Shown: positions 13,396 through 33,158 of the stretch, piece after piece | How the letters are laid out: every line of letters begins with the position of its first letter | Numbering within the stretch: the first letter of the stretch is position 1 | From: Promethearchaeia archaeon | Lineage (GTDB): Archaea; Asgardarchaeota; Lokiarchaeia; Sigyniarchaeales; SOKP01 | DNA length: 64,000 nt | Assembly (NCBI GenBank): GCA_029856125.1 | Contig: JAHQWJ010000136.1 | Span: 21,514 to 85,513 of the forward strand | Reading direction: 5' to 3' | Notes under the pieces: model-generated | Told to the model about the DNA's origin: nothing | Seen by the model: only the letters and a program-made list of their open reading frames with translations | Databases searched by the model: none | Program-made: the position numbers and the translations under genes

Positions 13396-15945
13396 TTAGA
13401 GCTCAATATCTCGATGCTGCATTTCAAGCAACCGTTTGTATTTTCCGTTCAATGCAAGTAAAGATTCGTGTGTTCCTTGTTCTATTATACCCTTTTTATC
13501 TGTGCCTAATACTATAATATTGTCCGCATTTTTGATAGTTGATAATCTATGAGCGATAATGATAGTAGTTCTTCCTTTTCGTGCTTTGTCTAGAGCGTCT
13601 TGGATGAGTGTTTCGGTGTATGGATCTACAGATGATGTTGCTTCATCTAAAATTAAAATTTTTGGGTCAGTAATTAACGCTCGAGCAAAAGCAATTAATT
13701 GACGTTGTCCAATCGAGATATTTGATGCGTTTTCTTTAAGTTTAGTATTATATTTCTTGTGTAAAGCTTCAATGAAATTATGCAAACCGAGAAATTTAGA
13801 AACTTCTATCATTTTTTTTTCTATCTCTGGAGTAGGGTTATCGAAAGAATAAAGTAAATTCTCACGAATAGTTCCGGAAAAAAGAAAAGCATCTTGAGGT
13901 ACCAAACCTATTATATTTCGAAGATCTTTCTTTGTGATTTCACGAATATCTACATCATCAATCAACACTTCTCCTTCGTTTATATCATAAAACCGGGAAA
14001 TTAATTTTGTGATTGTTGTTTTACCAGATCCTGTTTCACCAACAATGGCCATGGTTTTTCCTGAGGGAATTGTTAAATCTACATTTTCAAGGACGAAACC
14101 CGTAGATTGTTCATGTTGAATTATTTTCTTTTCTTCATCTATTGCATCTCTAACAATTTTGGGAATTTGTTCATATACTTCTTTACTAATTTTGGCGGTT
14201 GTTAGCATCCTAAGCATGGATTGAGGTGACATTTTTGGCATACCTCCCCCCATCATTCCACCACCTTCACCCATTCCGGCACCTGAAGATTGAATTGTAG
14301 CTTTGCTTCTCAAACTTTTTTCTAGAAATTTAGTCATTTGTAAGATTTCTTCAGGAGGTAGAGTAGGTAATATCGAATTATCTCCTTGATTAACTTTTAA
14401 ATCTGCTCGCTTAAAAGAAGTCTGCAAATCTGGATGATCATTTGCAAAATCCGTGCCTGGTACAGCGTATTTAAACTCAGCTAATATAGTATCAATTAGT
14501 TTTGGAGCATCAGAAGGTTTTTGGCTCATAAGACTCATAAATAATTTTTGTCTAATATTTTGAGGCATGAGTATGACATTTTTCATCATAAAAGAAGAAT
14601 AAGGCTCCGGAAGTGTCTTCATAAAATCCATAGCTCGTTTCATCATTTGTTGCATCATAGGATTATCTGGCATACCTGTCGGTATGGACATTTCAATTGA
14701 TCTCATTATTTTTGGATCTTTTTGAGGTGAGTCTGATCTTAAATTGTTTTCTTTACCATTTTCTAAGATATAACCAAAATTTACGGCATTAAACTCGATT
14801 TCTCCAATAACGTTTTCAATTCGTTTTGGATTTTCATTATCCGGAATTTCAGATTTCTCCTCCAATAAGGTGTATATTCTGTCACTTGCTGCTAAAGATG
14901 ATGCTATCATTTCTTGAATTTGCATTAACATCATAAAAGGTTTAAAAAATTGAGCTAGAATAGATATATAAGCGCTAAGCACTCCAACAGTAACAACTGT
15001 ACCAAATATCGTGACATTTCCTAGGATTACAAATCCTCCTGCAAACAAAATTCCAGCGGTAAGTATGCTGGTTACAAGGCCAATTAAAGGAAAGATCGTT
15101 GCCATGAACTTCCTAATTTTCAACATTGCATCGTAATTCTCAGTATTAGCTTCGTCAAACTCAGAGGATGCCTTTTTTTCCTGCCCGTATGCTTGGACCA
15201 CTTTAGCTCCCGCAATATTTTCTTGAATTGATGAAGTTACTTTGCCAATTGTTTTTCTGGATTCTTTAAAAAGCCCCATCGCTACCGTTCTAAATATATA
15301 AGTAAATATAAAAAAAACAGGGAATATAATTAGTGAGAGTAAAGCTAAGAATATATTGAGTAAAAACATAATACTCACAGTAAGGATTAAACTAATTACG
15401 CTCGTAATTACCATAACAAATTGGCCCCCAACCAATTGATTTAATAGAGTGACATCATTGGTTGTAATAGACATGATATCTCCTGATGATTTTTTGTCAA
15501 AATAACTTAGAGACATATCTTGAAGTTTATAGAAAAGGTCGTTCCTAATCTCGAATGTAATAGTTTGTGATATTTTTCCCATTCCGTAATTTGCAAAATA
15601 CGTCGTTATAGCCATAGCTACAAGAAGTGATAAGTAAAATGTTGACATAAAAACAATATAGATACTATCTTTAGCTACTATACCGTTGTCTATTATGTTT
15701 GCTGAAATAATAGGACTTATTGAAGTAACTAAAGTTCCGACTAATGATAAAACTATAAGAGTAATAAACTTCCATTTATAATTACCTAAATATGAAAATA
15801 ACCATTTCCATAATTCTCGTCGAGGATGTTCTAATTTAGAGTCGCCACTATCCATCATAAAACCTTTATGCATGCCACCACCGACCCTTGGTAGAATAAT
15901 TTCCTTCTCTTCTTCTTTTTTTTCCTTCTGATTGTTGTTATTCAT
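13396..15945 (-). CDS. Heterodimeric ABC exporter subunit (TMD-NBD) with a large Met-rich insertion in the NBD
   Basis: 6 TM helices; GETGSGKT, degenerate signature ISIGQ, ILILDE, AHR. Start ATG at 15945 behind GAGGT. Confidence 0.9.
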   Translation of the reverse strand: MNNNNQKEKKEEEKEIILPRVGGGMHKGFMMDSGDSKLEHPRRELWKWLFSYLGNYKWKFITLIVLSLVGTLVTSISPIISANIIDNGIVAKDSIYIVFMSTFYLSLLVAMAITTYFANYGMGKISQTITFEIRNDLFYKLQDMSLSYFDKKSSGDIMSITTNDVTLLNQLVGGQFVMVITSVISLILTVSIMFLLNIFLALLSLIIFPVFFIFTYIFRTVAMGLFKESRKTIGKVTSSIQENIAGAKVVQAYGQEKKASSEFDEANTENYDAMLKIRKFMATIFPLIGLVTSILTAGILFAGGFVILGNVTIFGTVVTVGVLSAYISILAQFFKPFMMLMQIQEMIASSLAASDRIYTLLEEKSEIPDNENPKRIENVIGEIEFNAVNFGYILENGKENNLRSDSPQKDPKIMRSIEMSIPTGMPDNPMMQQMMKRAMDFMKTLPEPYSSFMMKNVILMPQNIRQKLFMSLMSQKPSDAPKLIDTILAEFKYAVPGTDFANDHPDLQTSFKRADLKVNQGDNSILPTLPPEEILQMTKFLEKSLRSKATIQSSGAGMGEGGGMMGGGMPKMSPQSMLRMLTTAKISKEVYEQIPKIVRDAIDEEKKIIQHEQSTGFVLENVDLTIPSGKTMAIVGETGSGKTTITKLISRFYDINEGEVLIDDVDIREITKKDLRNIIGLVPQDAFLFSGTIRENLLYSFDNPTPEIEKKMIEVSKFLGLHNFIEALHKKYNTKLKENASNISIGQRQLIAFARALITDPKILILDEATSSVDPYTETLIQDALDKARKGRTTIIIAHRLSTIKNADNIIVLGTDKKGIIEQGTHESLLALNGKYKRLLEMQHRDIEL

Positions 15946-17680
15946 TAATGATACCTCTTTTCGATTTTTGTTTTTGAAATAGAGTTTCATATATTTGCTT
16001 GTATAAAACGTTAGAATTAATTAATTCTTCGTGATTCCCTAAACCTACTACACGGCCTCTATCTAAAATTAATATCAAATCCGCATTACGAATTGTGGAT
16101 ATACGTTGTGTTATTATAATAGTTGTTGTATTTTTCATTATTTTTGAAAGAGCTTCTTGGATTTTAAATTCAGTTTCAACATCAACTGAACTTGTAGAAT
16201 CGTCAAAAATCAATATCTTAGGTTTTACAATTAAGGCTCTTGCAATGGATAGGCGTTGTTTCTGTCCCCCTGATAACCGTGTCCCTCTTTCTCCTACAAT
16301 TGAGTCATATTGCTTCGGTAAAGTCATAATAAAATCATGGAGTTCAGCAATTTTAGCTGCTTCAACTATTTCTTCCTTTTTAGCATTCTCTCTACCATAA
16401 GCTATATTTTTTGCTATGCTCTTATTAAAAAGATAAGTCTCTTGGGAAACTATTCCAATACATCTTCTTAAATCCTTCAAAATATAATTACGGATATCAA
16501 TGCCATCAATTTTGATACTACCCTTGTTAATCTCGTAAAATCTTGGAATTAAATTTATGATTGTTGATTTTCCAGATCCTGTTGTCCCTAAAATGGCTAA
16601 TTTCTTACCCTCGGCTATTTTAAATGCAACATCTTTCAAAATTCTATGCTCAGATGTATAACCAAACGATACATTATCAAAAATTATTTCTCCCTTTACG
16701 GATTCTAGGGGGAGCGCATCTGGAAGATCTTCGATTTCAGGAGCAGAATCAAGTATCTCCCTAACCCGCGTTAAAGCAGCATCAGCTTGAACATAAGTTA
16801 ACATAATTTGCCCTAGCATCATTAAGGGAAAACCTAGAACTGCTATGTAAGATATTAAGGTTACAATTTCTTCTAATTGCATTCTTCCCTCAATATACCA
16901 CATTCCCCCTAAGAAAAATGTGATAACTGTCATAAATCCCATTACAACGTATATAACTGGCAAATAGAGTGAATTGTATTTTACAGATTGGACACTCGCG
17001 TTGTAGAATCTTCTATTGTTTGCTTGAAATTTCTTGTGTTCTTTATCTTGAGTACTAAACATTCTAACAACTTCAGCTCCTACAATGTTCTCTCTAATCG
17101 TATTAGTTAATTCACCAAAGCTACTACGAGTTTCTAAAAAAATAGGTTTTAATTTTTTCGCAATATAGTAAGATGTGACTAAAGATCCAAAAAAAGCTAT
17201 TATCAATATAATTGAAAGCTCTAAACTAAAAAGTAAAAATCCCACAACAACACCTACCATTTGTAGAATCGATTGTAAACCTAATGTCAAGCCCATCCCA
17301 AAAATCATTTGAGTTTCTTCAATGTCGCTTGTAGCTCTTGATATCAATTGACCCGTTTCAGTCTTATCAAAAAATGAAAATGATTGTCTATAGATTGCAT
17401 TACTAATATCTGTTCGTAAATAGTAAATAGCTCGAGCAGATACTTCTGCACCTCTAAGTCTGGCAGCACGATTGGAAAAGTACACACATATTGCGAATAA
17501 GATAACTATCAAAAAATTCAGTAATAAATCAGTAGCGTTCGTTAACGCTCCAACCATTCTCCCTATAAATACGGGCGTAAAAGTGTAAAAAATCGTAGTT
17601 AGTATAAGATATACAAATTGAAAAATGAAATTTTTTCTCGATTTTGCCCAATATTTTATTATCATACGAAATGAATTCAT
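15938..17680 (-). CDS. Heterodimeric ABC exporter subunit (TMD-NBD), degenerate-site partner
   Basis: GTTGSGKS, LSGGQ, Walker B ILIFDD (E to D) and H-loop Q (ITQR); TM287/288-type asymmetry. Confidence 0.92.
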   Translation of the reverse strand: MNSFRMIIKYWAKSRKNFIFQFVYLILTTIFYTFTPVFIGRMVGALTNATDLLLNFLIVILFAICVYFSNRAARLRGAEVSARAIYYLRTDISNAIYRQSFSFFDKTETGQLISRATSDIEETQMIFGMGLTLGLQSILQMVGVVVGFLLFSLELSIILIIAFFGSLVTSYYIAKKLKPIFLETRSSFGELTNTIRENIVGAEVVRMFSTQDKEHKKFQANNRRFYNASVQSVKYNSLYLPVIYVVMGFMTVITFFLGGMWYIEGRMQLEEIVTLISYIAVLGFPLMMLGQIMLTYVQADAALTRVREILDSAPEIEDLPDALPLESVKGEIIFDNVSFGYTSEHRILKDVAFKIAEGKKLAILGTTGSGKSTIINLIPRFYEINKGSIKIDGIDIRNYILKDLRRCIGIVSQETYLFNKSIAKNIAYGRENAKKEEIVEAAKIAELHDFIMTLPKQYDSIVGERGTRLSGGQKQRLSIARALIVKPKILIFDDSTSSVDVETEFKIQEALSKIMKNTTTIIITQRISTIRNADLILILDRGRVVGLGNHEELINSNVLYKQIYETLFQKQKSKRGIINE

Positions 17681-19829: not shown

Positions 19830-20573
19830 ATGGATTTTGAATCAAAATATTTTGATATAAGACAATTCCTCTCTATTTCTGAGCTAGAATTTAACTTGGA
19901 TAAAAAGATTGATGAATATTTTAATTCAGATAGTCTTAAGATGGAAATTTTAAGTAAGATAACCCAATTTATCTATTATTTTTCAATTTTTAAGAATATC
20001 AAACCTTTTATGAATTCTGTATATTATTGCATAGAAACTACTTTAGATCTTGGAGTTGAATCCGTAAGTGATTTTAAAGAGCTTCTAGTAAAAAATGCCT
20101 TGATGAAATTTGTTCAGGAATATATTGATTACGCTCAATTAACACAAAAAAGACAAGTATTAAATCTTTTATCAGATTCATTTGAGAAACTTCAAATTCA
20201 GCCTTTAATTATTAATTTAGGGTTACTTCTTAAGCCTATGTATCAAGATAAGGATTATCTTGATAGAGCAAATAAGAATAAGGATGTAAAAATCTCTTAT
20301 TCCCTTCTTAATGAGATTGAAATTAAAATTAAAACCATTATTGATGATTGGTTGAAGGCTCAAGCTATTGCATTAAACAATCAGGATGAAATTAAAAAAG
20401 AATTGGGAAAAAAATATGAGGATTTAGCGAGTAATTTTAAAATTATTAAAGGCTCTGATATATACAAAAAACTTTTCAGGGAAATAATGGAAATGCTCTC
20501 AATGAGACTTACTATGATTAGTTTAACGGAATCGATATCGGACGATTCATTTGAACCTATCCCAATAAAATAA
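19830..20573 (+). CDS. Hypothetical all-helical protein
   Basis: 247-aa ORF with normal composition; no family recognised. Confidence 0.7.
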   Translation: MDFESKYFDIRQFLSISELEFNLDKKIDEYFNSDSLKMEILSKITQFIYYFSIFKNIKPFMNSVYYCIETTLDLGVESVSDFKELLVKNALMKFVQEYIDYAQLTQKRQVLNLLSDSFEKLQIQPLIINLGLLLKPMYQDKDYLDRANKNKDVKISYSLLNEIEIKIKTIIDDWLKAQAIALNNQDEIKKELGKKYEDLASNFKIIKGSDIYKKLFREIMEMLSMRLTMISLTESISDDSFEPIPIK

Positions 20574-20742: not shown

Positions 20743-22224
20743 GTGAGAAAATTGGAAGAAAACGATAAACCTTTAACCCCCGAAGAAATAGAGAAACAGA
20801 AAAAGATTGTAGATGACCTATACAGAAAAGAAAAAGAAGATAGAGAAGATTACTTCAAGAGCTTCGAGGAAGAACGAAAAATTGCTTTTGAAGAGAGCAA
20901 AAATCTTATATCCTCATTAATATCAGAGAAAAGCTTCATGAGAGAAAAAAAAAGAGAACAAGATTTAATAAGAATGGAGATCAAACCTGAAATCGAAAAA
21001 GCAAGTGAAGCGATTGAAAAATCCATAAGTGAAAAAGCTTTTTTGAGAGAGAAACACAGAGAAGAAGATCATATAAGGATCGATCTAAAACTGGATATTA
21101 GAGGGGTAGGTGAAGCAATAAGTAAGACTGTTGACGATAAAGCTTTTTTAATTGAAAAAAGGAGAGAATCTGATGAACACAGAATGAAGATCAAACCTAA
21201 CATTGAACATACAGGAGAGGTAATCAGTAAAAATATTGACGAAAAAGCTTTTTTAATAGAAAAAAAGAAAGAGAGCGCTTCGGTATTGCTAGATTTAAAA
21301 CCGGACACGCAAACTGCAAGCAATGCAATTAGTAAATCCATAGAGGAGAAGTCTTTTTTAAGAGAAAAACAAAGAGAAAGCGATTTCAGTAGGATGCAGA
21401 TCAAACCAGATTTTCTGAAAACGGGTGAAGCAATAAGCAAAACCATTGCTGAAAAAGCTTTTAGAATTGAGAAAAGAAAAGAGATCGAACAGAAAAAAAT
21501 AGAAATACATCCAGATATTGAAGGCAAAGGAGAGGCAATAAAGGCAACTATTAACGAAAAAGCATTTCGGATTGATATGGAAAAAGATAAAGAACGAAAA
21601 ATAAAAGATATGAAACCAGACACAACCAAAGCCGGAGAATCTATAGCCCAATCTATTGGAACAAAAGCTTTTCTACGCGAAACGCATAGAGAAAAGGATT
21701 TTGAGAGAATAGATTTGAAACCAGATTTCTTAAAAACTGGAAATGCAATTAGCACTACAGTAGCTGAAAAAGCTTTTAGAATGGAAAAAAGTCGCGAAAT
21801 TGACGAAAAAAAAAGTGAACTAAAACCTGATATAAAAAAAACCGCAGAATTAATTAGCAAATCTATAGAAGAAAAAGCTTTTTTAAGAGAAAAGCACAGA
21901 ATTGAGGATTCTAAACGAATGGAAATAAAACCAGACATAACAAAAGCGAGCCAAGCTATTAAATCTTCAATTGACGATAAGGCGTTTAGAATTGAGAAGC
22001 AAAAAGAGATGAACCAGAAAAGAATGGAATTAAAACCAGACTTTGAGAAATCTAGCGACGCTATTCAAAAAACAATTGGGGAGAAAGCATTTATTATCGA
22101 AAAACAAAAAACACGCGATTCAGAACTAATAGAACTTAACCCAGATATTAAAGGTATTGGTTCATTAATCGAAGGAAAGATTGAAAAAATTGAACAGAAG
22201 AAAAAAGACGAGAATACTACTTAA
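20743..22224 (+). CDS. Highly charged protein of 13 tandem 35-aa repeats (nebulin-like period and motif; function unknown)
   Basis: 41-aa leader + 12x35 aa + 32-aa last unit = 493 aa; consensus RxxIKPDxxKxxxAIxKxIxEKAF[L/R]xEKxRExDxx. Confidence 0.85.
   Translation: MRKLEENDKPLTPEEIEKQKKIVDDLYRKEKEDREDYFKSFEEERKIAFEESKNLISSLISEKSFMREKKREQDLIRMEIKPEIEKASEAIEKSISEKAFLREKHREEDHIRIDLKLDIRGVGEAISKTVDDKAFLIEKRRESDEHRMKIKPNIEHTGEVISKNIDEKAFLIEKKKESASVLLDLKPDTQTASNAISKSIEEKSFLREKQRESDFSRMQIKPDFLKTGEAISKTIAEKAFRIEKRKEIEQKKIEIHPDIEGKGEAIKATINEKAFRIDMEKDKERKIKDMKPDTTKAGESIAQSIGTKAFLRETHREKDFERIDLKPDFLKTGNAISTTVAEKAFRMEKSREIDEKKSELKPDIKKTAELISKSIEEKAFLREKHRIEDSKRMEIKPDITKASQAIKSSIDDKAFRIEKQKEMNQKRMELKPDFEKSSDAIQKTIGEKAFIIEKQKTRDSELIELNPDIKGIGSLIEGKIEKIEQKKKDENTT
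20866..22221 (+). repeat. Intragenic 105-bp period tandem repeat (diverged)
   Basis: Recurrent AAACCAGA and GAAAAAGCTTTT motifs at 105-nt spacing; no indels between units. Confidence 0.85.
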
Positions 22225-22255: not shown

Positions 22256-22759
22256 CTATAATTGGACATCAAATTTGAATAAAGTATTTAAATTCATATT
22301 TTCTAATCTTTTTTTATATTGTAGAATTGAAGGGTCTACATTTCCATTAAAGTTCCTTATTGCAGATTCGAACCTATAGTAAAAATCTTCCATAATTTGA
22401 TGTAAAATTACTCTCTCTACTTGTAAATTGGTTTTTTTCGAAATCGCAATCACTGATAATCTCCCTCTCCTCTCGTATAAAATTCGACTCTCTTTAAAAT
22501 TCACTTCTTGAATCTCATCGTTCATTGATTCAGGTTTAATCTCACTTATAAAAAGATTAAGAGCGTTAAGAAACCCACTTATCAAATCTTCATGAGAAGA
22601 AAATTTAGCGTTGCGCGTATATTTTTTGCTAAGCAGTAATGAACCACTTATATTGTCTAAGAAGTAAATCGCGTGAAAACGATTATCGTCTGAATTAAAT
22701 CTATCGATATTAAATCCATACGTTTTTTCTGAATTTCTGTTAATCCATTTGTACGACAT
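22256..22759 (-). CDS. Longin/roadblock-like domain protein
   Basis: IYFLDNISGSLLLSKKY...DLISGFLNAL..FISEI...ILHQIMEDFY.RF...I.NFNG, the pattern of Asgard longin-like proteins. Confidence 0.65.
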   Translation of the reverse strand: MSYKWINRNSEKTYGFNIDRFNSDDNRFHAIYFLDNISGSLLLSKKYTRNAKFSSHEDLISGFLNALNLFISEIKPESMNDEIQEVNFKESRILYERRGRLSVIAISKKTNLQVERVILHQIMEDFYYRFESAIRNFNGNVDPSILQYKKRLENMNLNTLFKFDVQL

Positions 22760-23409: not shown

Positions 23410-23628
23410 ATGTCTCATAAAATGAGCGATAAAAAAATACCCCCTCCCCCAACACTACCGCCCTCTTTTACCGTATCAGATAATTTATGTCTGTTTCATA
23501 AAGGCGATTTGTCAGAAGAAATTTATACTTGTCCTAAGTGTAAAACTAAATATTGCCTAGAATGCGCAAAAAAAGCTCAGGCTGATAGGAAATCGTGTAT
23601 TAAATGTAAACAGATTGTTTTATTATAG
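23410..23628 (+). CDS. Small RING-like zinc finger protein with a Pro-rich N-terminus
   Basis: Eight ligands as CxxH, CxxC, CxxC, CxxC; PPPPTLPP upstream. Confidence 0.7.
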   Translation: MSHKMSDKKIPPPPTLPPSFTVSDNLCLFHKGDLSEEIYTCPKCKTKYCLECAKKAQADRKSCIKCKQIVLL

Positions 23629-24913: not shown

Positions 24914-26623
24914 TTGATACTTATGACAGAAGAAATTATAAGACGGACAACGAGTATTTGCCCAGAATGCTTACAAACCATTCCAGCGGAGATCTATGTT
25001 GATCCAAAAACTAACTGGGTCATGATGAGAAAAGATTGTAAAGAACACGGACATTTTAAAGACAAGCTTTCCATCGATCCAGATGAATACAAATGGGGCG
25101 AAACGTTCACAGACGACATAGGATCTACAGTTGATAACTCTACTAAACCTGAATATGTTAGTTCAGGATTAAAGGAGTGTGATGAAGGCTGTCCATACGA
25201 TTGTGGCCTCTGTGAAAATCATAAAAGCGCACCTAATATATGCCTAATCGACATTACAAATCGCTGTAATTTAACCTGCCCAATTTGTTTTGCTAACGCA
25301 AGCGCAAAAGGGTATGTTGTAGAGCCTACAATCGAACAAATTTTCCAAATAATGGAACACTTCAGGTCTATGAAACCTGTTGCAGCAGTTATGCTCCAAA
25401 TATCTGGGGGAGAACCTACAATTAGAGATGATCTTCCAGACATCATCCGGGAAGGAAAAAGACTCGGTTTCTCTGAAGTTATGGTTACAACTAACGGTAT
25501 AAGGTTCGCCAAATCTATTGACTTTTTACAAAAGTGCAAAGACGCGGGAATGGACGCCATCTACTTACAATTTGATGCAACGGACGATCCTGAAGCCTGG
25601 AAAAAGGTTCGTGGCGTAAATCTATGGCCTTTAAAGAAACGCGTTATTGAAAACTGTCGAAAAATTGGATATTTTGGTTTAATGTTAGTTCCTGTAATCG
25701 CCAGAGGTGTTAACGACCACGAAATCGGAAACATTTTAGACTTTGCTAAGGATAATAGCGATGTGATTTCTGGAGTAGTTTTCCAACCTGTCTCACTTTG
25801 TGGGAGGATAAGTTTTGAAGAATTGATGGATTTGAGGTACACTACTTCAGATCTCAAGGTGGCAATAAATAAACACACAAATAATGCTATTAGAAAATTC
25901 TATCCCATCGCAACTACAGCAAAAATGACCCGCTTATTAGCTTGGTTCGATAATATGCCCGAATTTGGTATGACGAGCCATAAAGATTGTGGATTTGCTA
26001 CAATTATTATCGTTAACGATAAAGACGAATGGGAATCCCTCGATGATTATTTTGATTCAGAAGGACTAATTAAATGGTCAAATAAAGTTTATGACATGGT
26101 TCAAAAAAAAGAAATCCCGAAACCCACTGGGTTCTTAAAAGGTATAAACTTGGAAGATTTCGGAGCCGTAGCTAGTACTATTGGGAAATTTATAGACGAG
26201 ATGACTGATTTAGGATATCGGCAAATGATGAAAGCTTATTATTTTGCCGGAGGAATTAAGTTCGTAAAACATCCAGAAAAAGTCTTAACAAGTAAAACCT
26301 ACCAAAGCTTTGCTAGAATTATAGCATCTCCTAACTTAGCAAGCGCCGCGAACTTCTTGCACAACAAGAACCTTATGATTTCGGCGATGCATTTTCAAGA
26401 CGCATACAACTTCGATTTAGACAGAGTTTGTAGATGTTTAGTTCATTACGGCGTAGTAGATCCTGATGACAACTCAAAGACACTCGAAATACCATTCTGT
26501 GCTATGAATACGCTACATCGGGAAAGAATTGAGCTTGCAAACGCCATTAAAGGCGAGGAAGCTAAAAAAGCTGAAGTTATCCAAGCTGAAATTAAAGAGC
26601 TTTTAGAAACCGTAAAAGAATAA
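24914..26623 (+). CDS. tes: Tetraether lipid synthase (Tes / GDGT-MAS, MJ0619 family radical SAM)
   Basis: N-terminal SICPEC...CKEHG, GCPYDCGLCENHKS, TNRCNLTCPICFANA, SGGEPT, MHFQDAYNFDLDRV.RC..HY, IPFCAMN. Confidence 0.85.
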   Translation: MILMTEEIIRRTTSICPECLQTIPAEIYVDPKTNWVMMRKDCKEHGHFKDKLSIDPDEYKWGETFTDDIGSTVDNSTKPEYVSSGLKECDEGCPYDCGLCENHKSAPNICLIDITNRCNLTCPICFANASAKGYVVEPTIEQIFQIMEHFRSMKPVAAVMLQISGGEPTIRDDLPDIIREGKRLGFSEVMVTTNGIRFAKSIDFLQKCKDAGMDAIYLQFDATDDPEAWKKVRGVNLWPLKKRVIENCRKIGYFGLMLVPVIARGVNDHEIGNILDFAKDNSDVISGVVFQPVSLCGRISFEELMDLRYTTSDLKVAINKHTNNAIRKFYPIATTAKMTRLLAWFDNMPEFGMTSHKDCGFATIIIVNDKDEWESLDDYFDSEGLIKWSNKVYDMVQKKEIPKPTGFLKGINLEDFGAVASTIGKFIDEMTDLGYRQMMKAYYFAGGIKFVKHPEKVLTSKTYQSFARIIASPNLASAANFLHNKNLMISAMHFQDAYNFDLDRVCRCLVHYGVVDPDDNSKTLEIPFCAMNTLHRERIELANAIKGEEAKKAEVIQAEIKELLETVKE

Positions 26624-27446: not shown

Positions 27447-28010
27447 TTGCCAGCAGAAGAATTTTCCAACGAAGCTAAGGAATATGTATTCAAGATTACA
27501 ATTCTCGGACAAAGTGCCGTGGGTAAAACTTCATTAATTAATCAATTTGTGGAAGGTTCGTTTCAAGAAGACTATAAACCAACACTTGGCGCAAATATAA
27601 TCCGTAAGGATGTGAACATAGATGAAGTCAACGCTAAAGTTCGATTAATAATGTGGGACTTAGCGGGTCAAGAGAAGTACAATGTAATCCGAAGCATGTA
27701 CTTCCAAGGGTGTGTTGGGAGTTTACTCGTGTATGATGTCACTCGTCACGAGAGCTTTGCTGCGATTGAATCTAAATGGCTTAAAGATTTCAAAAACTAT
27801 GTGAAAAAAGAGGGCGCTTACATTTTAATCGGCAATAAAATCGATCTAAACGAACAGCGAGTAGTTAGTAAAGAAGAGGGAGAAAAATTAGCTAAACAAA
27901 TCGGTGCAAGTGTTTTTATTGAAACCAGTGCTAAATTAGGAAAAAATGTTGAAGAAGCCTTTAAAAGTTTAGTATACCAAATTTTACGAAATTATGGAGA
28001 AAAAATATAA
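27447..28010 (+). CDS. Rab/Ras-like small GTPase
   Basis: GQSAVGKT, YKPTLG, WDLAGQE, NKID, ETSAK. Confidence 0.95.
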   Translation: MPAEEFSNEAKEYVFKITILGQSAVGKTSLINQFVEGSFQEDYKPTLGANIIRKDVNIDEVNAKVRLIMWDLAGQEKYNVIRSMYFQGCVGSLLVYDVTRHESFAAIESKWLKDFKNYVKKEGAYILIGNKIDLNEQRVVSKEEGEKLAKQIGASVFIETSAKLGKNVEEAFKSLVYQILRNYGEKI

Positions 28011-30697: not shown

Positions 30698-32977
30698 TTA
30701 TTGATACAAGTTGGAATCGCTATCTTTTACTTTTTGGTCCTGAGCGAGTTGTTTTGCTAAATTTTCGTACTTATCAATAGTTTCTTTTTGTAGTGTTGAT
30801 CCTACTTTTGTAAGCGCTTCCTCAAAATGATGTAATTCAACAAAGTCAAAATCTTCCATCTTTTCTCTTATTGCTTGCATGCCTGCTTCTCTGCACAAAT
30901 TTTCTAGATCTGCTCCACTGTAGTCTTCTGTCATTAATGCTATGTTTTTCAAAGAAATACCTTCTTTAAGTGGCATATTTTTTGTATGAACTTCTAAAAT
31001 CTTAATTCTTCCTTCATAATCTGGAGCAACTACATATAGTAGTTTATCGATTCTTCCGGGTCGTAGTAGCGCAGGATCAACCAAATCAGGACGGTTAGTA
31101 CTAGCTATAATGACGATCCCGCTATTACTCTCGATCCCATCCATTTCAGTTAATAATTGGGTTATTACGGTGTCATAAACAGCTGATCCTTTCCATCCTC
31201 CTCGGCTGGTGGTAAGTGCTTCAATTTCATCAAAATATATAATGGAAGGGGCTAGTTCTCTGGCTTTTGCGAATATGCTCCTTATATTTTTTTCAGATTC
31301 ACCAACCCATTTTGACATTAGTTCTGGACCTTTAACAGTTATAACATTCGATTGCGTTTCGCTCGCTACAGCTTCTGCTAATAGTGTTTTTCCACAACCA
31401 GGAGGACCAAAAAGAAGAATACCCCCAACAGAACGAATTCCCGCCTTCTTGAACAGCTTTGGATGTTTTAACGGCCATTCAACAGCTTCCTTTAACTCTT
31501 GTTTTATTTCATCCAATCCACCAACATCATCCCATGAAACCTCGGGAATTTCTGTAAGATACTCTCTTAAGGCAGATGGTTTTATTTCTTTTAATGCTTT
31601 TAGAAAATTGTCATCTTTAACAAATAATTTTTGAATAGTCTCATTCGGTACCGGTTCGTCAATATTAATTTCAGGTAAAATATCTCTAATAGCATCCATA
31701 GCGGCTTCTCGAACGAAAGCCATAATATCTGCTCCAACAAAACCGTGAGTAATTTCAGAATAGTAATCAATATCCACATCAGCTTCCATTGGCATTCCCC
31801 GCGTGTGAATTTTAAAAATTTCATTCCTCCCTTTTTTATCCGGAATTCTAAATCTTATTTCAGTATCAAACCGTCCTGGCCTTCGTAAGGCAGGATCAAT
31901 CGCATCAATTCGATTTGTAGCACCGATAACTATTACACCTTCTCTACCCTTCATCCCGTCAAGCAGAGTAAGTAGCTGAGATACAACCCGTCTTTCAACT
32001 TCTCCTGTAACTTCACTTCTTTTAGGGGCGATCGCATCGAGCTCATCTATAAATATTATTGCAGGTGCGTTACTTTCAGCTCGATCAAAAAAACCTTTTA
32101 AATTCCTCTCGCTATCTCCGTAGAATTTACTCATAATTTCAGGTCCATTTATTATGAAAAAATAAGCGTCCGCCTCTTGAGAAACAGCTTTAGCCATTAA
32201 AGTTTTTCCCGTACCAGGAGGACCATAAAAGAGAACTCCTTTTGGAGGTTCAATATTCAATCTCTGAAATAATTCAGGATGTCTGATAGGTAATTCCACC
32301 ACTTCTCTGATCCTTTGAATTTGGTCAGTTAAACCTCCAACATCGTCATATGTAATAATTTCACCCGAAATATTAAGTAATGCTATCTTTTTATTTATTT
32401 TTATCCTTGTGTCTCGTGTAAATCTAACAACCTCATTATTAGGTTTGGTATTTAAGACAATTAATCTTAATGGTCCTAAGGTTGGTCTTTTTGTACTCCC
32501 TCCCATATTAAACATTTTCATAAATCCATTCATAGGGTTATTGTTTTGATCAGTTCTAATTATAGCTCCAGGAACATCAATAATATCTCCAGCCACAAGA
32601 GGTTTATCAATCAATTTCCCTTTTATTAAGTCAGCTTGTTTTTTAATATCGTAAATTGCCTTAGTTGGGGCAAGTTCTATTTCTCTAGCTGGTGAAGCAA
32701 GTGTGGGTTGTATTGTTATGAATTCTCCAATAGTAGATCCTAAATTTTTTCTTTGAATTCCATCTATTCTAATAATTCCTTCTCCTTTGTCAGCAAAACT
32801 CGCTACAACAATACCCGCAGTTTTCTTCTTGCCAATTAATTCTACAATATCACCAGTAGATAATCCCAGATTATCCAATACAGTCTGATCTATATAGCAT
32901 AAACTTCTTCCACTACGGCTTGGTTCTAATCTTTCTACTCTTAATTTTGCTGTTCTTTTTACGCTTTCTTTACTCAT
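30698..32977 (-). CDS. cdc48: CDC48/VAT-family AAA+ ATPase
   Basis: N-domain plus two AAA modules (GPPGTGKT, GPPGCGKT), DPALRRPGRFD. Confidence 0.95.
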   Translation of the reverse strand: MSKESVKRTAKLRVERLEPSRSGRSLCYIDQTVLDNLGLSTGDIVELIGKKKTAGIVVASFADKGEGIIRIDGIQRKNLGSTIGEFITIQPTLASPAREIELAPTKAIYDIKKQADLIKGKLIDKPLVAGDIIDVPGAIIRTDQNNNPMNGFMKMFNMGGSTKRPTLGPLRLIVLNTKPNNEVVRFTRDTRIKINKKIALLNISGEIITYDDVGGLTDQIQRIREVVELPIRHPELFQRLNIEPPKGVLFYGPPGTGKTLMAKAVSQEADAYFFIINGPEIMSKFYGDSERNLKGFFDRAESNAPAIIFIDELDAIAPKRSEVTGEVERRVVSQLLTLLDGMKGREGVIVIGATNRIDAIDPALRRPGRFDTEIRFRIPDKKGRNEIFKIHTRGMPMEADVDIDYYSEITHGFVGADIMAFVREAAMDAIRDILPEINIDEPVPNETIQKLFVKDDNFLKALKEIKPSALREYLTEIPEVSWDDVGGLDEIKQELKEAVEWPLKHPKLFKKAGIRSVGGILLFGPPGCGKTLLAEAVASETQSNVITVKGPELMSKWVGESEKNIRSIFAKARELAPSIIYFDEIEALTTSRGGWKGSAVYDTVITQLLTEMDGIESNSGIVIIASTNRPDLVDPALLRPGRIDKLLYVVAPDYEGRIKILEVHTKNMPLKEGISLKNIALMTEDYSGADLENLCREAGMQAIREKMEDFDFVELHHFEEALTKVGSTLQKETIDKYENLAKQLAQDQKVKDSDSNLYQ

Positions 32978-33158
32978 TTTTTTCAAATTCTTTTTCTTTT
33001 CTACTCTAAAAGAAATAATGATACTTTATTTTCTTTTGCTTTATTTATTATAATGAGTCAGATTATCTCATTTTATGGATTCTAAGAGTTGTAGCTCATT
33101 AAATATTGTTTAAAAACCATATTTGAAGGTTTCAATGCTTTTACGGAAATTAAAAACT

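Follow-up and report, generated by a model that had tools for sequence, protein, structure and literature searches.

Does the open reading frame at 20743-22224 (+) of a Lokiarchaeal contig encode a nebulin-like ruler of actin filaments, or a repeat protein of another kind? The frame lies in the window, the 64,000-nucleotide stretch of DNA that was analyzed here, and a preliminary description of that stretch had read it as 13 repeats of 35 residues that might bind along the side of Lokiactin filaments. The host is indeed a Lokiarchaeon, and its genome carries Lokiactin together with three other actin-family genes. The analyses described below establish a real gene, without a name, from one branch of Loki-type Asgard archaea, and they bear on its repeat architecture, its origin, and the kind of partner that its product might bind.

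The gene itself was considered first from its start codon and its coding signal. The preliminary description had placed the start at GTG 20743, followed by a leader of 41 residues. This codon sits inside a GTGAG Shine-Dalgarno-like motif (20743..20747, +), whose GTGA is kept a few nucleotides upstream of an ATG or TTG in all 11 homologues inspected, and the start is therefore most likely TTG 20752, with a leader of 38 residues and a product of 490 residues (20752..22224, +). Comparison with seven gap-free orthologues gave dN/dS values of 0.07-0.16, which shows that purifying selection acts on the gene (dN/dS about 0.15). Transcription is hinted at, weakly, by RNA-library contigs of approximately 98% identity that span 21323-21869 and come from three runs within a single study, although contigs of this kind do not disclose expression level, strand, or freedom from DNA. 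A promoter and terminator scan of the locus, which relied on a bacterial consensus in an archaeal host, stayed at chance level, and we interpret the antisense frame at 21069-21938 as a shadow cast by the repeat. As originally described, the protein is highly charged (46% of its residues), and no signal peptide or transmembrane segment is visible in its sequence.

The repeat is unmistakable. When the protein is split at residue 42, it resolves into twelve 35-residue units without gaps (20866..22125, +) and a final stretch of 32 residues, a partial 13th unit. A K[AS]F motif recurs 11 times at exactly 35-residue spacing, the autocorrelation of the sequence reaches 0.39, 0.37, and 0.41 at lags of 35, 70, and 105 while every other lag remains at or below 0.16, and mean identity between units is 44%. 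The count of 13 units needs qualification: the spacing is exact, but both ends are degenerate, leaving 11 well-formed units. Unit 1 has a degenerate first half, and the final stretch (22126..22221, +), which includes a C-terminal helix, lacks KAF and shares only 4-10 of 35 residues with other units. Each of the twelve units consists of an [LI]-[KH]-P-D hinge, an amphipathic helix (I15, I/V19, E21, K22, A23, F24), and a highly charged spacer. The claim of about one proline per unit fares similarly. P6 is present in 80% of 605 distinct units taken from 60 loci, but unit 1 of this protein has no proline and unit 3 has leucine in its place. Across the same 605 units, R/K30 (100%), I15 (99%), K22 (97%), F24 (93%, with tyrosine in another 4%), E31 (86%), and E21 (84%) are near-invariant, as are I/V19 and A23, with the proviso that concerted evolution inflates conservation between units.

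Strict conservation of length, which had been taken as a sign of binding to a periodic polymer, is not absolute across the family. Among 561 real spacings at the 60 loci (three further ones were assembly gaps and were not counted), 554 are of 35 residues and seven of 32. The shorter units lack three residues of the charged spacer and keep the amphipathic core intact, whereas longer units differ at the junction; natural insertions and deletions thus fall in the spacer or the junction, as they do in nebulin. Distant homologues, from two further families within the order, have units of 37 and of 37-38 residues, one of them without proline. Two homologues from high-GC genomes of the Loki order (L070:1150-2055 (-) and L071:1153-2061 (-)) keep the motif in their first units, and their later units diverge into a different Ala/Asp/Lys-rich unit of approximately 40 residues. 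Copy number varies as well, with 4 to 14 units detected per complete protein and mostly 8-12. Similarity between units is higher inside one protein (0.47-0.84) than from genus to genus (0.34-0.60), and a mild three-unit periodicity is apparent as a slight excess at lag 3, which together indicate that the arrays have been re-amplified in each lineage.

The origin of the array can be approached from its N terminus. The conserved head and the core of unit 1 (20755..20943, +) are homologous to stand-alone Asgard proteins of 59-67 residues from Freyarchaeia, Atabeyarchaeia, and Helarchaeales, with an hhalign probability of 97.5% (E 5.6e-12) over 59 columns without gaps. With a head-including profile, such proteins were found in the families f20 (5/5), f21 (6/6), f9 (2/3), and f5 (1/3). 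Their database relatives are hypothetical proteins labeled Freyarchaeota, Atabeyarchaeum, and Helarchaeota (for example WED05_06710, KIH04_10260, and HWN66_15350), and no match to Pfam, NCBIfam, or PDB was obtained for them. A non-circular profile built from the heads of repeat proteins only scored the small proteins at 24-46 bits, compared to at most 9.8 bits for 2,600 shuffles and at most 10.3 bits for approximately 19,000 other genome ORFs. In the reverse direction, the query was missed in its own genome when the profile consisted solely of ten small proteins, and was recovered once three bridging sequences had been included (E 2.6e-8); the link is hence good but not reciprocal without the bridging sequences. 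Given this homology of the N-terminal 60 or so residues, the simplest account of the sequences would be that a small Asgard protein had its C-terminal half amplified in tandem in a single Loki order, a lineage-specific event followed by losses, and the direction of change would presumably have been from the small protein to the repeated one. In one genome, G258, two matches to the small-protein profile were noted (L164 and L165, on contigs C141 and C195), of which L165 was not recovered as a clean ORF. At the Atabeyarchaeia-type loci (L166:4862-5050 (-), L167:5088-5276 (+), and L203-L209), the small gene is flanked by a HAD hydrolase gene on one side and, on the other, by a convergent gene whose product exceeds 1,000 residues and has no Pfam match.

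Gene order adds to this picture. The upstream gene (19830..20573, +; 247 residues, no family match) is syntenic at 69 of 84 loci, and the convergent downstream gene (22256..22759, -; 167 residues, no Pfam match) at 77 of 84; both serve as context only, and in genomes without the repeat gene they adjoin each other directly. The 167-residue protein, which looks longin-like by eye, has many paralogous domains in Asgard genomes, some of them inside longer proteins. A Tes-like radical SAM gene of the tetraether lipid synthase family (24914..26623, +) scores 440 bits against an NCBIfam cut-off of 450. At 57 of 84 loci of the Lokiarchaeal family, the repeat gene is followed, 2.7 kb downstream, by a Tes-like gene, and in f21 the small gene is located about 0.5 kb upstream of a Tes gene. 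With about two Tes-like genes per genome, this shared neighbor supports orthology of the Loki and f21 genes. Contig C51 carries a second Tes-like paralogue, and five matches were counted in G258.

The proximity to a lipid synthase gene, in 57 of 84 Loki loci and five f21 loci, also raises the question of whether the product is a membrane-associated or stress-protective protein of amphipathic helices, of the apolipoprotein or LEA type, for which the proline-punctuated amphipathic helices and the hydrophilic composition would be suitable. The apolar face is narrow, however (over positions 7-25, the hydrophobic moment is 0.31 and the mean hydrophobicity is -0.08), there is no 11- or 22-residue period, and lipid binding requires no specific invariant residues, of which the unit has several. 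The Tes link is, moreover, absent in other lineages, and we regard such a function as distinctly improbable.

Other genes in the vicinity are recorded here for completeness. An ABC exporter subunit of 864 residues (13396-15990, -), whose relatives are syntenic at 56 of 84 loci, is matched by MsbA-type models in two stretches; its nucleotide-binding domain seems to be split by a Met/Pro/Gly-rich insertion of roughly 200 residues. A 72-residue protein (23410-23628, +) with a proline-rich N terminus and a cysteine-rich, zinc-finger-like C terminus gives weak RING/IBR matches and is syntenic in other genera. A Rab-like small GTPase of the Ras family (27447-28010, +; E 1.5e-52) is a neighbor at only 9 of 84 loci, and a double-AAA ATPase, CDC48-like in looks, is encoded near the repeat locus at 30698-32986 (-).

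Structure prediction was consistent with an extended molecule. For four units (141 rows), AlphaFold2 returned a single helix for each unit, interrupted wherever a proline occurs, with a pLDDT of 69 and a pTM of 0.23; the full-length model gave the same picture (pTM 0.19), and its most confident part was the head helix, with pLDDT values of 78-91 over residues 11-70. There was no confident packing between helices in these models, and most of the covariation linked positions close in sequence or 35 residues apart, without a clear sign of hairpins. The repeat protein is thus predicted to form extended helices without tertiary packing, in line with the earlier expectation of a helix chain instead of a self-packing solenoid. 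A divergent alpha-solenoid of the TPR or PPR type would account for the ten proteins with 34-residue TPRs that phmmer matched to the query (E 4e-13 to 6e-5). These matches were traced to an EIKPD motif and were not accepted as a relationship: the profile-profile comparison that had been proposed aligned only 9 columns around this motif at 4.4% probability, no TPR or PPR family of Pfam matched, and the models have a single helix per unit where a solenoid calls for hairpins, which makes such a fold very unlikely.

The whole protein had no matches in a homologous-protein search, an ESM Atlas feature search gave no usable match for the repeat protein or a small relative, and the repeat family had no match in Pfam, NCBIfam, or PDB. 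PDB sequence searches, Foldseek, and an Atlas fold search returned nothing or generic long helices, and the best VIA-align superposition (Z 7.5, rmsd about 10 Å) was not significant, its neighbors all being long coiled-coil helices. The fold searches show neither a known nor a new fold. Nor was the family described in the titles and abstract openings of the literature searched on Asgard archaea in connection with nebulin, thymosin, WH2, or tandem repeats; it is a family for which we found no prior description, built to a design of a known kind.

The reading that we favor, at a probability of roughly 0.4, is that the product is a soluble, cytoplasmic, non-enzymatic accessory protein that acts as a multivalent helical tether or stabilizer for a cytoplasmic polymer or oligomer. 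It would have arisen when the C-terminal half of a helical Asgard protein of approximately 60-67 residues was amplified in tandem in one Lokiarchaeia order. Helices of about 30 residues, joined at proline hinges, would each present the motif I-x3-[IV]-x-E-K-A-F every 5.3-6 nm, one unit would engage one subunit of an abundant polymer or oligomer, and the charged spacer after each helix would absorb changes in length. Copy number would then set avidity and not measure a fixed length. We infer both the binding of a partner and its multivalent nature from several features taken together, namely the invariant repeated motif, the exposed phenylalanine, the hinged and extended helices, the insertions and deletions absorbed by the spacer, and the freely varying number of units. 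On a straight helix, F24 lies 180 degrees from the Ile stripe, on whose narrow face I8, G/A12, I15, I19, K22, and I26 come together, and is therefore free for a partner; that the near-invariant positions include polar and off-stripe ones (K22, F24, R/K30, E21, and E31) was likewise counted for a tether.

The same stripe permits a different assembly, in which two or three chains zip together through positions 8, 12, 15, 19, and 26 into a segmented coiled coil or fiber that serves as a spacer or scaffold. Thirty-five residues equal five heptads, the hydrophobic periodicity peaks at 3.5-3.9 residues, the stripe residues share one face, and the structural neighbors, none of them significant, are all long coiled-coil helices. 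AlphaFold2 returns long helices also for homo-oligomerizing chains and for chains that are disordered by themselves, and the low pTM consequently does not tell a tether and a coiled coil apart. What speaks against self-association is found in the unit itself: the apolar stripe covers only about half of each period, the other a/d positions being K, Q, D, and R; proline interrupts every fifth heptad; the near-invariant phenylalanine is on the opposite face; and units of 32 and 37-38 residues break the heptad register. On balance, a self-associating rod is a possibility to be taken seriously, if one that we consider to have about half the standing of an even bet.

Lokiactin is the partner that the preliminary description had put forward, with nebulin as the precedent. 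The contacts of nebulin with actin involve S18, D19, Y22, K23, D3, K11, and K30, which are met on the actin side by K68 and E276, and nebulin units vary from 31 to 38 residues (10.1101/2021.10.06.463400). The unit described here has this layout, being 35 residues long at nearly every spacing, with proline in most copies and a predicted helix that begins at the proline. Descent from a common ancestor with nebulin is another matter. The shared period, the proline, and an x-E-x-x-F in register with SDxxYK would be expected of a true homologue or ancestor of animal nebulin and LASP repeats. Yet PF00880 left the repeat locus unmatched at E values up to 10 in five carrier genomes (G000, G046, G084, G124, and G005), and was neither listed for the query nor present among the best 25 families for 141 four-unit windows. 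The strict SDxxYK motif occurs zero times in all homologues, and a relaxed S[DE]xx[YF][KR] in 29 of 605 units. No eukaryotic relative appeared among 50 matches in 1.84 billion representatives, the long ones examined being TPR proteins, and the array occurs in a single Loki order only and comes from a different small protein. We consider homology to nebulin, which the preliminary description had entertained, to be scarcely credible; judged by sequence, the protein resembles nebulin in layout only, and the family has no bearing on the origin of eukaryotic nebulin.

A convergent side-binder, derived from a small older Asgard actin-binding helix and stabilizing Lokiactin with one unit per strand subunit, is a separate proposition. 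The Lokiactin filament has a rise of 27.9 Å and a twist of -167.7 degrees (PMC9834061). A repeat unit of 52.5-60 Å brackets the 55.8 Å per subunit along one strand, in agreement with the original argument; the geometry is compatible with Lokiactin but unspecific. The further idea that 13 units form a ruler of about 70 nm, one full long-pitch turn, did not survive, given the variable number of units per protein and a full turn of 14.6 subunits per strand, or about 82 nm. At the residue level, when F24 is aligned on Y22, D19 finds a conservative counterpart in E21 (91% of units) and Y22 one in F24 (97%), some 15-18 positions beyond the proline at the helix start, and the E276 position is Asp or Glu in 81 of 84 Asgard actins, with an acid kept in the host Lokiactin. 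In the same alignment, however, S18 is matched in 17% of units and K23 (as K/R) in 34%, whereas D3, K11, and K30 have a similar residue in only 0%, 11-12%, and 1-21% of units in either register, their equivalents being otherwise absent or of opposite charge. The cation-pi partner of the nebulin tyrosine, K68, is Met in the host Lokiactin and variable in Asgard actins. The helix model does not discriminate between a tether and a nebulin-like binder, since long helices are predicted for nebulin repeats as well.

Distribution argues further against a dedicated role at Lokiactin. The repeat gene is found in 109 of 134 other genomes of its Lokiarchaeia family, mostly at one locus, and in three further genomes of the same order. 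The array is present in 113 of 400 Asgard genomes, all of one order, compared to 340 of 400 genomes and 82 of 85 genera for Lokiactin, so that co-occurrence with actin is not supported. An apparently wider distribution, from NCBI labels on some carrier contigs (Hodarchaeota, Odinarchaeota, Thorarchaeota, and an actinobacterium), was rejected because the GTDB-based search places the carriers in the Loki order. Seven Lokiactin-bearing genomes have an empty site, six from two genera of the same family and one closed genome from a sister family. At these sites the genes on either side meet directly, the sequence contains neither a gap nor Ns nor anything that matches head or unit, and Lokiactin is 91-100% identical to that of the host. 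Because the gene is cleanly missing where Lokiactin is kept, its product is no indispensable component of Lokiactin filaments, and genomes of its own family can do without it. A broader profile found no match in two closed Asgard genomes of 6.0 and 4.4 Mb, and there is no actin or actin-regulator gene among the conserved neighbors at 84 loci. An actin paralogue (L062) occurs in genomes both with and without the repeat and therefore provides no co-occurrence signal. The Lokiactin protein itself (L061:1495-2640 (-), contig C63 of genome G000) is 95-100% identical across genera of the host family, many genomes of which have a second actin at 82-86% identity. Taking both sides together, a Lokiactin side-binder appears doubtful. 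If true, it would join profilins and gelsolins as a further, new class among the Asgard regulators of actin. With a unit length that suits the rise of actin, this conserved repeat protein is a candidate that can be tested cheaply and directly.

Comparison with known systems places the candidate tether among helical repeat proteins while setting it apart from each named family. Like nebulin, nebulette, LASP, and N-RAP (PF00880), it has tandem helical modules of about 35 residues with proline at the helix start, an acid and an aromatic residue in mid-helix, a variable copy number, and length changes outside the helix core. Unlike them, it lacks SDxxYK, has Phe in place of the invariant Tyr, carries an Ile stripe, replaces the DTPE-type motif by [LI]-[KH]-P-D, and shows a mild three-unit periodicity where nebulin has a seven-unit super-repeat; it also has no LIM or SH3 domain and no HMM similarity, and is archaeal and found in one order only. 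TPR (34 residues) and PPR (35 residues) repeats have a similar period, and some TPR proteins have the EIKPD turn motif in common with it, but the unit has neither their helix-turn-helix nor their small-residue packing pattern, and no solenoid is predicted. To the eye, the head, with its Pro-Pro-x-Pro-Glu helix cap, and the small Atabeyarchaeia proteins, which end in L-K-K, recall beta-thymosin and WH2 (PF01290 and PF02205). The order of the motifs is reversed, and kinship was rejected, as neither family matched at the loci at E values up to 10. A likeness to stathmin, again by eye, was also dropped, stathmin not being among the Pfam families listed.

The closest counterparts are the small single-module proteins, which are homologous to the head and first-unit core; in the Freyarchaeia type, a C-terminal L-E-x-H-[IV]-x-E-K-A matches the core motif of the repeat. 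They differ in having a single module, no Phe, and no tandem array, and so offer a minimal construct and a natural comparison of one unit with many. Whatever its partner, the repeat protein stands as a clear case of a long repeat protein made from a 60-residue module within the Asgard archaea.
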